From Candidatus Lokiarchaeum ossiferum (GTDB taxonomy: Archaea; Asgardarchaeota; Lokiarchaeia; Sigyniarchaeales; Promethearchaeaceae), in the NCBI GenBank assembly GCA_025839675.1, contig CP104013.1, forward strand, positions 4,770,001-4,802,000: DNA of 32,000 nucleotides. The letters run 5' to 3'. The notes beneath the pieces were generated by a model. That model had not been told where the DNA came from, made no database searches, and worked only from the letters and a program-made list of their open reading frames with translations. The translations under genes were made by a program, and so were the position numbers. This document shows positions 27,880-32,000 of this stretch, piece after piece (within the stretch, counting starts at the first letter, position 1; each line of letters starts with the position of its first letter).

Positions 27880-29679
27880 ATGAAGGAATCAAATGTAATT
27901 ATAAAACCATGGCGGGATGATTATCTGAAAATTGGATTAGTCTATCCAAATTCTTATTCTGCGATGGCGGGTTTGACAATTCAAACGCTTTATAATATGT
28001 GGAATTCCCATCCCAATATCATTTGCGAACGATTTTTTCTTCCTTCTCCCGAATTTTCTTTAACTGATTCCAAACAATTGAAAGGCCATCGTTCGAATAA
28101 AAAAAAACAATTTATTTCAAGTTCTTTAAGGACTGGTGATGATTTCACGCATAATCATCCTGGACAACATCAACCGATGATCCGCAGTTTGGAAAACAAC
28201 ATGCCCTTAGTTTCTTTTGATATTATTGCAGTGTCCCTTTGCTATGAAATGGATTATCCAAATTTATGTTGGATTCTAGAAAATTCTCATATTCCTGTAT
28301 TTCGGAAAGATCGAATAAATGCGACCTCAGAAATGGAAGAGCTGATTGATTATAAAAATTATCCTCTCATCTTGGTGGGGGGGCACGTGATTCGCTCTAA
28401 TCCACTTCCCATAGATTCCATTTTCGATGCTGCATTCATCGGGGAAATTGAACCTATGAATGAGAAATTAATCGAGGCTTGGTTTTCTGCAAAGGATGAT
28501 ATTTCAAACACTTCCTATTTGATGATTCAGAATGACTTTTTAAAATCTATCAACAAACTGCGGGGATTTTGGATACCTTGGCTCCGTCCGTTGCAAGATG
28601 ATCCCCATATTTCTCGAGTCTATGTCAAAAATTTAGATTTAAATCCGCATCCAATTTCCCAAATTATTCCTCATTTTTCATCTTCAGAATCCAATTCTCT
28701 GCCTTTTGGAGAATCATTATTTGTTGAAGTCAATCGAGGATGTCCGCATTTTTGCCGATTTTGCATGACTGGGTCACAAATCAAACCCTTTCGGAATCGT
28801 TCCCTATCAGTTTTACAAAATATCATTCAAAAGGGATTAACGGCGACCAAAGTAAAAAAAGTCGTCTTAATAGGGTCATCCGTGACCGATCATCCTCAAT
28901 TTTTGGAATTATGTAATTTTTTGATTGATCTTAATATCGAGTTTTCTATCCCTTCAATCCGCATTGAAACTTTAACACTCCCTATGGCAAAAGCGTTGGT
29001 GAAGGGAGGTATGCGTACGGTGGCAGTTGCTCCTGAAACAGGTTCTGATAGATTGAGGAAAACTATCAATAAACGTATTTCGAATTTACAAATTTTAAAA
29101 GGGGCCAAAATTCTCTTGGATGCTGGGATTCCTAATATTAAATTGTACATTTTATATGGGCTGCCCCATGAAAATGATTCCGATTTGGATGCCATAGTGT
29201 CCTTGGCCAAATCTATTGCAAAATTGGGATATGGAAAGAGTGGAGTTAGGTTGAGTGTGAACCCCTTTATTCCAAAATCCCATACTCCCTATGAATCATC
29301 AATAGAGTTGTATCTTGATGCTAAAATGGCTCGATTCAAGGAAAAATTGGCCCGGATTTATGTCCCACTTAAAGGTGATAAACAAATCAAATTCGAAACT
29401 TTACCTTTGGAAGAAGCTTACCTACAAACTTTATTTTCGCTTGGAGATTCTTCTTTTGTAACATTTATCTATGAGTGTTATCAACATGGGTTAAGTATAA
29501 AGAAATGGTATCGGTTTGCCAAGGCAAAGCAAAATGCTTATGCTGGTCTTCATCAAGATTACTTACAAAAGGTTGCTGAGAGTTCTTTTGGGGGCCATCC
29601 ATGGAATTTCATCGATCAAAACCTTCCTCCCCGCCTCCTTCAAAGAGAATTTGAGAAAAGTTTTATTAAGGATAACTAA
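27880..29679 (+). CDS. Radical SAM enzyme with N-terminal B12-binding-like/Rossmann-like module
   Basis: 599 aa. The CxxxCxxC cluster motif is NRGCPHFCRFCMTG. The N-terminus KPWRDDYLKIGLVYPNSYSAMAGLTIQTLYNMWN resembles the uncharacterised radical-SAM subfamily that begins ...l.valvfPd.Y.vgmsnlgl.iLy..ln. Confidence 0.8.
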   Translation: MKESNVIIKPWRDDYLKIGLVYPNSYSAMAGLTIQTLYNMWNSHPNIICERFFLPSPEFSLTDSKQLKGHRSNKKKQFISSSLRTGDDFTHNHPGQHQPMIRSLENNMPLVSFDIIAVSLCYEMDYPNLCWILENSHIPVFRKDRINATSEMEELIDYKNYPLILVGGHVIRSNPLPIDSIFDAAFIGEIEPMNEKLIEAWFSAKDDISNTSYLMIQNDFLKSINKLRGFWIPWLRPLQDDPHISRVYVKNLDLNPHPISQIIPHFSSSESNSLPFGESLFVEVNRGCPHFCRFCMTGSQIKPFRNRSLSVLQNIIQKGLTATKVKKVVLIGSSVTDHPQFLELCNFLIDLNIEFSIPSIRIETLTLPMAKALVKGGMRTVAVAPETGSDRLRKTINKRISNLQILKGAKILLDAGIPNIKLYILYGLPHENDSDLDAIVSLAKSIAKLGYGKSGVRLSVNPFIPKSHTPYESSIELYLDAKMARFKEKLARIYVPLKGDKQIKFETLPLEEAYLQTLFSLGDSSFVTFIYECYQHGLSIKKWYRFAKAKQNAYAGLHQDYLQKVAESSFGGHPWNFIDQNLPPRLLQREFEKSFIKDN

Positions 29680-29715: not shown

Positions 29716-30231
29716 TTAATCGTCAAAGAGATCGCGGCGTAATCCAAAGGGACGTGTTTTAACTGGGCAAGATTCGTGTTCATTACAACAAATTGGGATG
29801 TAGGACCAGACTTTAAATTGATCCCAAGGGACTAAGACGTATTGCAACGATTGAGTTAAAGGGCATTGAGTTGCTAACTCGCGAATTGGTCCATCACATA
29901 ACATTTCTTTGTGGGATTTTTTTTGAGAAAAAATACACAATCCATCAGTAGGTCGAAATCCAAATAAGAATTGCTTATGGGGGATTACATGGGATGCTTT
30001 ATCGGCACTGATCACTTTGCGTTCATATAAAATTTCAACATGACCTGCATCAAAAGAAAATTTTATTGCTTTGTACATATCGTTTTGTTGATCGAGGGGA
30101 GTTAATCGTAAGACGTCGACAAAATCTTGTTCTATGGCCTCATCTATCATGCGTTCTAAATACTGCGGAAGTGCATCGGGTTCGTTGAATAGACTGGGCA
30201 TAGTGAAGTTTAACTCCATCAAATTTTTCAC
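29716..30231 (-). CDS. Hypothetical protein with C-terminal Cys/His cluster
   Basis: The ORF is 171 aa from GTG 30231. ATG 30219 is preceded by aggtga and is the likely start. Cys/His-rich segments are MLCDGPIRELATQCP and YIPICCNEHESCPV. No family recognised. Confidence 0.5.
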   Translation of the reverse strand: MKNLMELNFTMPSLFNEPDALPQYLERMIDEAIEQDFVDVLRLTPLDQQNDMYKAIKFSFDAGHVEILYERKVISADKASHVIPHKQFLFGFRPTDGLCIFSQKKSHKEMLCDGPIRELATQCPLTQSLQYVLVPWDQFKVWSYIPICCNEHESCPVKTRPFGLRRDLFDD

Positions 30232-30456: not shown

Positions 30457-31215
30457 TTAATCTTGCCAAATTCTTTCATTATCTTCAGGGTTCAACTCTT
30501 CATCAAGATTTTCTTGAAAACCGATCTTTTCTTTGTCTTGCTTGGGAGAATTTTCGGGAATCTCTGCCAAACCATCATCTTCTAAGTTAACATCAATTTT
30601 ATCATCGGGAAGTAATTTCATAGAGACTAATTCGGATCCATGTTGGACTCGGGACGATGTGACCGATATCTGTAATGAAGAAAGTACATAATTTAAGGTA
30701 AATTGGAAGCCTTTGTAAAAATCGGGTAGGATTGAAGTACCAAAAACGCGAATTTTATCCTTACCAAATTTTTTCTCAATGGCTAAGCGAATTGTGCTTA
30801 TTTTTTTTTCCCGCTTTTTATCAGAGGGAATTAAATCTATTTTGTGAAGCAGAACATACACGAACGGAATATCATAGCGAGATACGATGGTATTTAGCTG
30901 TTCCACCAACTCAAGTATTTTACGTTTCGAATGTCGACAATCGAAAATAATAAGTAATTCATCCGTTGCCGGAAAAATATATTCATTTTCTCTCTTAAAC
31001 CATGTTTCTAATTCTTGGCCAGCAAGGTCAAAAACTCCAATTTGTAAATTTCTCCATTGAAAATTAGAAACATCAATTCCTCGGGTTGGTTCAATAGAAC
31101 TTCTCAATATGACTTCAGGTTCGACATATCCAAAAGTAGTTAGGACAATCGAGGATTTACCACTCGCGGGAGGACCGACGAAAATTACTTTTTTTTCAAT
31201 TTCCATTATGATCAA
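30457..31215 (-). CDS. Rag/Gtr-like small GTPase (paralogue B), G domain plus short acidic tail
   Basis: 252 aa. The motifs are G1 VGPPASGKSS, switch I IEPTRG, G3 FDLAGQE, G4 in the Rag-type HKxD form (LLHKIDLI) and G5-like FGTSILPDFYKGF (RagA: FRTSIWDETLYKAW). The tail contains VNLEDDGLAEIP. Confidence 0.75.
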   Translation of the reverse strand: MIIMEIEKKVIFVGPPASGKSSIVLTTFGYVEPEVILRSSIEPTRGIDVSNFQWRNLQIGVFDLAGQELETWFKRENEYIFPATDELLIIFDCRHSKRKILELVEQLNTIVSRYDIPFVYVLLHKIDLIPSDKKREKKISTIRLAIEKKFGKDKIRVFGTSILPDFYKGFQFTLNYVLSSLQISVTSSRVQHGSELVSMKLLPDDKIDVNLEDDGLAEIPENSPKQDKEKIGFQENLDEELNPEDNERIWQD

Positions 31216-31245
31216 TTTTTTAAGGGATTAAAGGGTGCTTCTGGC

Positions 31246-31989
31246 TCAATCACGATCTCGTTCAATTTCCTGGATGGTTAAATCTTTTTTGACTGTTGCC
31301 ATTTCATTATATCCGTTTGGGTTGACCTTCGGGACTTCTGCTAAACTATCATCGTCTAAATTAACGCCAATAAATCCTGCTGTCCGTAAACTTTTTAGCA
31401 ATGCTTCGGAGACTGGAACTGCTCGGAGTTCTTTCATATTTCGGACAGATATTTCCAAGGCGGTAAGCATCCAATCCATTTGAAATTTGAATTTTCCAAA
31501 ATGATCTGGAAATAGTGAAGTAGCAAAAATTTTGATCCGATCCATTCCAAAGGTATCATCAATATTCTTTTTTAAAGTCGCAATATAAGTTTCCCGCTCG
31601 TTGATGGTTTTTGCTTTATCAATTTTATGTAAAATAAGGTAATAATAAGGGATTTTAAACTTTTTAACAATGGAGAGTAACACTTTTATTAACCCGACGA
31701 TTTTTTTCGGATTCATACCAAACTCAAAAACAATGAGAAGTTCATCAGTTCCTGGAAAAATGAAATCTTGTTCATTAGTAAGAAAGAAATTGAGTTCTTG
31801 GCCTGAGAGATCATGAACTCCAATATTGACATGCCCATAACGATAAACTGAGTTCTCCATTCCACGTGTGGGTTCTGCTGGTGATGCTAAAATCAAATCT
31901 GGTTCAACAGAACCAAAAATAGACAACAATATTGAAGTTTTCCCGCAGTTCGGGGGACCTAAAATAACGAGTTTTTTATCAGAATCCAT
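31246..31989 (-). CDS. Rag/Gtr-like small GTPase (paralogue A), G domain plus short acidic tail
   Basis: 247 aa. The motifs are G1 LGPPNCGKTS, switch I AEPTRG, G3 HDLSGQE, G4 LILHKIDKA and G5-like FATSLFPDHFGKF. The tail contains VNLDDDSLAEVP. It is about 45% identical by eye to paralogue B over the G domain, and a 30-bp spacer separates it from the downstream paralogue. Confidence 0.75.
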   Translation of the reverse strand: MDSDKKLVILGPPNCGKTSILLSIFGSVEPDLILASPAEPTRGMENSVYRYGHVNIGVHDLSGQELNFFLTNEQDFIFPGTDELLIVFEFGMNPKKIVGLIKVLLSIVKKFKIPYYYLILHKIDKAKTINERETYIATLKKNIDDTFGMDRIKIFATSLFPDHFGKFKFQMDWMLTALEISVRNMKELRAVPVSEALLKSLRTAGFIGVNLDDDSLAEVPKVNPNGYNEMATVKKDLTIQEIERDRD

Positions 31990-32000
31990 ATCAGAATTTT

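Follow-up and report, generated by a model that had tools for sequence, protein, structure and literature searches.

Candidatus Lokiarchaeum ossiferum carries two adjacent genes for small GTPases of the Rag/Gtr type, which we call A and B. The analysis described here makes it probable that the two arose by a lineage-specific tandem duplication of one Rag/Gtr-like gene and that their products act as stand-alone switches, the C-terminal tails of which dock partners in trans. Both genes lie in the last 1.5 kb of a 32,000-nucleotide (nt) stretch of the genome (GenBank assembly GCA_025839675.1, contig CP104013.1, positions 4,770,001 to 4,802,000 of the forward strand; hereafter the window), which has an average G+C content of about 34%. 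They are co-oriented open reading frames on the minus strand, A followed by B, and their products are 41% identical over 237 residues (BLASTP, E-value 2e-65) and 43-44% identical over the G domain. Both belong to the Asgard 'Gtr1/RagA' radiation, which has expanded in Lokiarchaeum.

Family placement of the two G domains

In Pfam, Gtr1_RagA was the best family for both proteins (33.8 bits for A and 59.2 bits for B at a cut-off of 22 bits), with the match limited to profile positions 1-163 of 232. A profile built from ten A/B orthologues was then compared with all PDB sequences. Here, we obtained E-values of 1.7e-15 for Gtr1, 1.1e-11 for RagA, 2.5e-8 for RagD, 1.4e-7 for RagC and 1.7e-7 for LokiRagO (8yl2), a 'RagA-like' GTPase from Lokiarchaeota; the corresponding values for RhoA and Arf were 1.4e-6 and 1.3e-5. 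The AlphaFold2 models of residues 1-180 had mean predicted local distance difference test scores (pLDDT) of 83-97 (A) and 89-98 (B) in blocks of ten residues. When these models were compared with the PDB by Foldseek, the eleven best-ranked matches of A and the nine best-ranked matches of B were all Gtr1 or RagA/RagC complex entries (E-values of the top-ranked matches 1e-12 to 4e-10).

Inspection of the motifs indicated that A and B have kept the P-loop GxxxxGK[ST], the switch I threonine, the glutamine of DxxGQ, HKxD and TS[LI] intact. Judged by these motifs, each protein comprises a complete stand-alone G domain with the residues predicted for GTP binding and hydrolysis. The HKID of A and B aligns with HKMD of Gtr1, and its H, K and D are the same in all aligned A/B orthologues, with I nearly invariant. 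Taken together, the Pfam, PDB profile and Foldseek data, the intact motifs and the HKID/HKMD alignment support a Rag/Gtr-like identity of both proteins ahead of Arf, Rho and Ras. The G3 motif reads [FH]DL[AS]GQ. Neither protein carries a lipidation signal in the form of a CAAX box, a C-terminal cysteine or an N-terminal Gly2 (termini MDSDKK.. and ..ERDRD in A, MEIEKK.. and ..RIWQD in B), and in both models strand 1 starts at residue 4-5, so that there is no Arf-type N-terminal amphipathic helix. The sequence-only reading of this DNA had described adjacent same-strand paralogues of Rag/Gtr rather than Arf, Ras or Rab type, with about 45% identity over the G domain, the G4 strings LILHKIDKA and VLLHKIDLI and the G5 strings FATSLFPDHFGKF and FGTSILPDFYKGF. 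All of this was confirmed, and the strings are present as quoted.

When single sequences were used for the PDB searches, A appeared nearer to RagC/D and B nearer to Gtr1/RagA. The assignment of A as RagC-like and of B as RagA-like was nevertheless ruled out by the orthologue profiles: the A-type and the B-type profile both ranked Gtr1 ahead of RagA and RagA ahead of RagD/C. Thus, the asymmetry of the single-sequence searches is noise, and the pair does not involve a split of the RagA/RagC type.

Tail motifs and duplication history

The G domains are followed by only 65-67 residues. This is too short for a roadblock fold, and since the pLDDT of the tails is also below 50, the models indicate that A and B have no roadblock domain. 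The B tail is acidic (19 Asp/Glu vs. 7 Lys/Arg). In the A tail, AlphaFold2 places a short helix at residues 195-203, which is moderately amphipathic (hydrophobic moment 0.49, mean hydrophobicity 0.07) and was considered as a membrane-targeting element. B lacks this helix. Among A orthologues, its consensus is VPVSExLLKSLRTAGF, and the tail portion preceding the shared motif (residues 183-205, comprising most of VPVSEALLKSLRTAGF) is 73.5% identical, compared with 64% for the G domain.

Both tails share the acidic motif I.VNLEDDxLAE[VI]P. Between A-type and B-type proteins this motif is about 51% identical, compared with 12% in the tail segment before it and 19% in the segment behind it. In 132,592 residues of open reading frames from the window and 26 fetched loci, even the relaxed pattern [DE][DE].[LF][AV][DE][LIV]P was confined to A-type and B-type proteins. 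Other motifs are specific for one paralogue. A orthologues carry NPxGYNEM, and B orthologues share GFQENLDEE..PEDNERIWQD, which corresponds to the C-terminal GFQENLDEELNPEDNERIWQD of B. The terminal W[QH]D was retained in all complete B-type proteins and in the C-terminal fragment examined (P0001-P0004, P0009, P0100), including the most divergent orthologue (P0009) and the fragment itself (P0100). Because the shared motif forms an island of identity, the A tail in front of it is better conserved than the G domain and W[QH]D is kept, these comparisons argue that the tails are under selection. In the monomer models the shared motif does not dock anywhere with confidence.

Homologues were sought by a word-indexed search of 5.8 billion proteins and by a full HMMER scan of 1.84 billion representatives. 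The A/B clade turned out to be tiny: the HMMER scan returned eight representatives below 1e-30, the word-indexed search agreed, and members of the clade occur in a few Lokiarchaeum-like lineages only. All homologues with a named source came from genomes of Promethearchaeota, Odinarchaeota or Hodarchaeota. Among the matches listed in a contig scan of genomes there were only distant relatives with at most 38% identity, and a scan of metagenome contigs with tail-specific patterns gave no match.

The order A-then-B is kept in five lineages with spacers of 11-40 nt. The spacer measures 39 nt in the window and the overlapping contig L001, 40 nt in a second lineage (contigs L002 and L003), 29 nt in L004 (which encodes the B orthologue P0009), 14 nt in L025 (where B is truncated by the contig end) and 11 nt in L026. 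A further lineage deviates from this arrangement. On the 2.8-kb contig L005 (607-2075), an A-type gene is followed after 210 bp by the gene that we call C (see below) and there is no B-type gene, so that B was either lost or the duplicate was never fixed in that lineage. The nearest sister proteins, P0098 (272 residues) and P0099 (410 residues), are encoded by single-copy genes in a different neighbourhood. Their tails lack the VNLEDD..LAEVP motif but have a stretch, SISNSLLDTM.., that is related to the A helix. P0099 (L024 1345-2577) has, in addition, an acidic low-complexity extension of 135 residues in front of its G domain.

In a neighbour-joining tree of the G domains, the bootstrap values were 100% for the A clade, 70% for A plus B and 99.5% for the sister clade. 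B proteins sit on longer branches, and for the same species pair they are 44% identical, compared with 64% for A. The grouping of A with B, the single-copy sister and the longer B branches indicate a duplication within the Lokiarchaeum lineage with B as the faster-evolving copy. On this tree, A and B appear to be each other's closest relatives, and their duplication appears to be recent, lineage-specific, independent of the RagA/RagC split and much younger than it. That split has been placed among eukaryotes only, nested within Asgard relatives (bioRxiv 10.1101/2024.02.28.582541). Asgard eukaryotic signature proteins, which are encoded by genes otherwise typical of eukaryotes, are patchily distributed and tend to be duplicated (10.1101/2020.10.19.343400), Gtr1/RagA GTPases are enriched in L. 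ossiferum (PMC9834061), and in the cultured lokiarchaeon Promethearchaeum syntrophicum MK-D1 Rag-like proteins of variable architecture form the second largest class of small GTPases (PMC10933270). The pair is a young local variant in a family with patchy, lineage-specific expansion.

We envisage the following scenario. The two genes would be transcribed together, and each tail would present a series of short linear motifs through which the GTPase is docked onto trans-acting partners. The shared motif may bind a partner or platform common to A and B. The connections of the two switches would differ owing to the motifs found in one paralogue only, which for A are NPxGYNEM and the helix VPVSExLLKSLRTAGF and for B the acidic C-terminus ...PEDNERIWQD-COOH. 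B would be the neofunctionalised copy.

Several points weigh against this scenario. The disorder of the tails is deduced from low pLDDT with about ten tail-bearing sequences in the alignment, and the tails might conceivably fold when they bind or form a small structured unit. GTP binding and hydrolysis are deduced from motifs, the P-loop contains an unusual GPP, and co-transcription is suggested by the spacing only. Among the neighbours of the pair, no roadblock or longin gene was detected (small open reading frames had no Pfam support), and no partner of A or B was identified. Gene C was considered as partner and rejected, since it is tied to a radical SAM gene, also at loci without GTPase.

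Alternative explanations

Alternatively, A and B might form an obligate Rag-like heterodimer, held together by the tails and their shared motif or by a common dimeric roadblock/longin partner, and might represent a stage before roadblock fusion. We consider such a heterodimer possible but rather unlikely. The tandem order with short spacers in five lineages fits this idea, as does the fact that both paralogues have kept the shared motif while the rest of the tail diverged. There is also a Rag-like operon pair in MK-D1 that is predicted to heterodimerise, but through roadblock domains (Tran et al. 2024, PMC10933270). However, A and B have no dimerisation domain, and their tails remain undocked in the monomer models. 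The idea is further weakened by the lineage in which A directly precedes gene C without any B, and by the single-copy sister clade, which implies that the ancestral protein worked without a paralogous partner. Moreover, the duplication is recent, the clade is narrow, and both paralogues resemble Gtr1/RagA instead of RagA on one side and RagC on the other.

The heterodimer at a pre-fusion stage was the proposal of the sequence-only reading, and what it had noted about the tails holds to a large extent. The tails of about 65 residues without roadblock domain, the positions of the shared motif (VNLDDDSLAEVP in A at nt 31330-31365, VNLEDDGLAEIP in B at nt 30556-30591) were recovered. In addition, the tail motif and the tandem order proved to be conserved in orthologues, the tandem order in five lineages. 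Two details depend on the start codon of B. The 30-bp spacer and the location of the motif at the same residue numbers in both proteins are correct if B starts at TTG; from the ATG the spacer measures 39 nt and the motif of B occupies residues 206-217, with a gap of three residues in the tail alignment. The evolutionary part of the proposal found no support. The orthologue profiles, the recent local duplication and the published placement of the RagA/RagC split in eukaryotes oppose a pre-fusion stage, and its polarity is not parsimonious, given the wide occurrence of Rag-like proteins with a roadblock domain in Asgards and eukaryotes.

In a related scheme, A and B would constitute a Rag-like coincidence switch without roadblock domains, in which the shared ..LAE[VI]P motif docks both proteins on one dimeric roadblock/longin platform (Ragulator-like) provided in trans. 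We regard this as unlikely. If it were true, the pair would exemplify a modular, motif-based assembly of a Rag-type heterodimer.

Ran has a linker, a helix and an acidic DEDDDL tail behind its G domain. By analogy, helix and acidic motif of our proteins could pack on their own G domain and be released in the other nucleotide state to expose an effector site. The succession of G domain, linker, A helix (residues 195-203) and an acidic motif some ten residues further on resembles the Ran layout, and the strong conservation of the tail would be expected. However, AlphaFold2 leaves the tail undocked from the G domain (pLDDT below 50), B lacks the A-type helix, and there is no sequence relationship to Ran, the best matches being Rag proteins. 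An intramolecular switch of this kind is therefore quite improbable.

It is very unlikely that the tails are functionless, decaying remnants of a lost C-terminal domain (a Rag roadblock or the winged helix of a group of 290-residue relatives) and that the pair is a redundant duplicate in a GTPase-rich genome. The nearest relatives outside the clade do have a C-terminal winged-helix-like domain. In HMMER, the match of the A-type profile runs on weakly as far as helix 1 of the Gtr1/RagA roadblock (LEISLRNIKEL vs. LEMNLRNFAQI, not significant). In MAFFT, the A helix falls on helix 1 of the C-terminal domain of the 290-residue group, a weak alignment that differs from that of HMMER. In contrast, hhalign of the tails against the winged-helix domain gave a non-significant probability of 0.5%, and the constraint on the tails described above (A tail before the motif, motif island, W[QH]D) is clear.

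WDxGGQ at G3 and NKxD at G4 are characteristic of the Arf family. That A and B are genuine Arf-like (Arf/Arl/Sar) GTPases, as suggested by the NCBI name 'ADP-ribosylation factor-like protein' for the 99%-identical L. ossiferum protein of B and by its Pfam Arf score above cut-off (35.3 bits), can practically be dismissed, since Arf is second for B and below cut-off for A (14.3 vs. 22.3 bits), the N-terminal amphipathic helix is missing, G3 and G4 differ, and in the PDB profile search the E-values of the Rag family are better by about 9-10 orders of magnitude. For the A/B group the database name is misleading, as has already been pointed out for the Arf-like naming of Asgard Rag-like proteins (PMC10933270, PMC11914678).

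Gene neighbourhood and relation to known systems

The coordinates of the features are summarized in Table 1. The true start of A is probably an ATG located 15 nt upstream of the in-window start and just off the window end, which would give a protein of 252 residues and leave the in-window frame five codons short. Orthologues begin with MENS.., and the longer contig L001 contains that ATG; at L001 9986-10000 (window 31989-32000 and beyond) A reads MENSDMDSDKK..., as in the orthologue P0007. The start codon of B (31207-31215) is ambiguous: the NCBI model for L. ossiferum uses the TTG at 31215 (252 residues, MIIMEIEKK), and B orthologues of other lineages begin at the ATG (MEIEKK). Beyond the window end, some 40-70 nt ahead of A (L001 9930-9960), we found TTTTCTAATAnCAAGGCTATTTTGG. 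Four lineages have this sequence in front of A in largely conserved form, and a fifth has it in part. This element is a candidate archaeal promoter (B recognition element/TATA box) for the A-B unit. A sigma-70 promoter scan was discarded as irrelevant to archaeal DNA.

Table 1. Positions of the two GTPase genes, their motifs and adjacent genes in the window
Feature	Position	Strand	Remarks
Gene A	31246-31989	-	Rag/Gtr-like small GTPase, 247 residues as read in the window
A G domain	31447-31989	-	residues 1-181; AlphaFold2 and Foldseek
A G1, GPPNCGKTS	31933-31959	-	
A switch I, EPTRG	31861-31875	-	
A G3, DLSGQE	31795-31812	-	
A G4, HKID	31618-31629	-	
A G5, TSL	31513-31521	-	
A tail	31249-31446	-	residues 182-247; predicted disordered; pLDDT below 50 for 182-223 and 226-247
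A-type tail segment VPVSEALLKSLRTAGF	31372-31419	-	residues 191-206; short predicted helix
Shared acidic motif in A, VNLDDDSLAEVP	31330-31365	-	residues 209-220
A-type-specific NPNGYNEM	31300-31323	-	G, N, E and M invariant in six A-type sequences
A-B spacer	31207-31245	-	39 nt to the ATG of B; 30 nt to the TTG at 31215
Gene B	30457-31206	-	Rag/Gtr-like small GTPase, 249 residues from ATG
B G domain	30661-31206	-	residues 1-182; AlphaFold2 and Foldseek
B G1, GPPASGKSS	31150-31176	-	
B EPTRG	31078-31092	-	
B G3, DLAGQE	31012-31029	-	
B G4, HKID	30835-30846	-	
B G5, TSI	30730-30738	-	
B tail	30460-30660	-	residues 183-249; predicted disordered, acidic; pLDDT below 50 throughout
Shared acidic motif in B, VNLEDDGLAEIP	30556-30591	-	residues 206-217 from ATG
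B-type-specific C-terminal motif GFQENLDEELNPEDNERIWQD-COOH	30460-30522	-	terminal W[QH]D kept
Gene C	29716-30219	-	167 residues, downstream of B
Radical_SAM_N2/Radical_SAM gene	27880-29679	+	convergent (tail-to-tail) with gene C

The product of gene C is 68-95% identical in four related loci (L002-L005), contains six invariant cysteines and had no match in Pfam or the PDB. Its family comprises 55 clusters with 42-95% identity to C, and all named members are Promethearchaeota, Promethearchaeum or Harpocratesius. The convergent pairing of C with the radical SAM gene is kept in MK-D1 (DSAG12_01653) and in two other lokiarchaeal contigs with no GTPase upstream. Thus, the position of C beside A and B reflects synteny by descent and not a functional module. 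C may be an uncharacterised partner or substrate of the radical SAM enzyme.

Two other genes of the region should be mentioned. At 23134-24249 on the plus strand there is a small-GTPase gene (about 356 residues; Arf, Ras, MMR_HSR1 and Roc matches) that adjoins GrpE and has no relation to the A/B clade; MK-D1 has a similar pair of GrpE and GTPase (355 residues) in the equivalent region. Beyond the window end, on the upstream side of A (L001 7927-8991, minus strand), a conserved neighbour of 354 residues has no precomputed Pfam hit; its match to zinc-dependent phospholipase C is below threshold (23.7 bits, cut-off 26.8).

In eukaryotes, TORC1 signalling uses Rag GTPases as its nutrient-sensing switch, and the roadblock-mediated heterodimer is central to their working. 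To our knowledge, the Rag-like proteins of Asgard archaea are the only prokaryotic relatives of this family. A pair of Rag-type G domains in which conserved linear motifs replace the dimerisation domain provides a small, tractable handle, and the short motifs could be used directly as baits for the binding partners of an archaeal Rag-like GTPase. Ca. L. ossiferum is kept as an enrichment culture (PMC9834061) and, among the Asgard archaea, is one of the two for which isolation or enrichment in culture has been reported (PMC10933270, PMC9834061). Since the duplication is young and local, the pair alone does not inform on the origin of the eukaryotic heterodimer; A and B are an unusual, locally restricted variant in an Asgard GTPase family that is already known, rather than an established forerunner of the eukaryotic Rag heterodimer.

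When the pair is compared with known systems, the C-terminal switch of Ran is a functional analogy only, based on a short C-terminal helix and an acidic motif; Ran belongs to a different family without sequence relationship to A and B. The closest relatives outside the clade are Asgard proteins of 290-297 residues (P0010-P0031), which align with B at 24-31% identity and share the P-loop GP[PSA]..GK[ST], HKID and TSI with A and B. Unlike our proteins, they end in a folded, winged-helix-like domain of some 110 residues (weak HTH_20, HTH_24, MarR and HTH_45 matches). Where their sources are named, these are genome records of Promethearchaeota, Odinarchaeota and Hodarchaeota. The combination of a Gtr1_RagA G domain with a winged-helix-like domain is absent from the architectures listed in PMC10933270.

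LokiRagO (PDB 8yl2) was deposited as a homotetramer with a chain of 342 residues, and its match to the A/B G domain starts near residue 40. Our literature searches found no paper on LokiRagO or an Asgard Rag tetramer, and the searched literature contained no description of the A/B subfamily or of its tail motifs. With the Asgard Rag-like GTPases ('Gtr1/RagA', RagGtr/ArfL), A and B share the phylum-level origin, the G-domain family, the frequent Arf-like annotation and the lineage-specific expansion of paralogues, and operon pairs are known in this group. The architectures described there are GTPase-roadblock, longin-GTPase and longin-GTPase-roadblock (Tran et al. 2024, PMC10933270). In contrast, A and B consist of a G domain and a predicted disordered tail with short motifs.

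The best match of the G domains, in sequence and in structure, is to the eukaryotic Rag/Gtr proteins (RagA-D, Gtr1/Gtr2; PF04670). HKxD at G4, TS[IL] at G5, the lack of a lipidation signal and the presence of two paralogues encoded together are common to both systems. In eukaryotic Rags, the roadblock domain makes the proteins obligate heterodimers and docks them on Ragulator/EGO. A and B have no C-terminal roadblock domain, and both resemble Gtr1/RagA, whereas the eukaryotic pair combines one protein of the RagA/B (Gtr1) type with one of the RagC/D (Gtr2) type.

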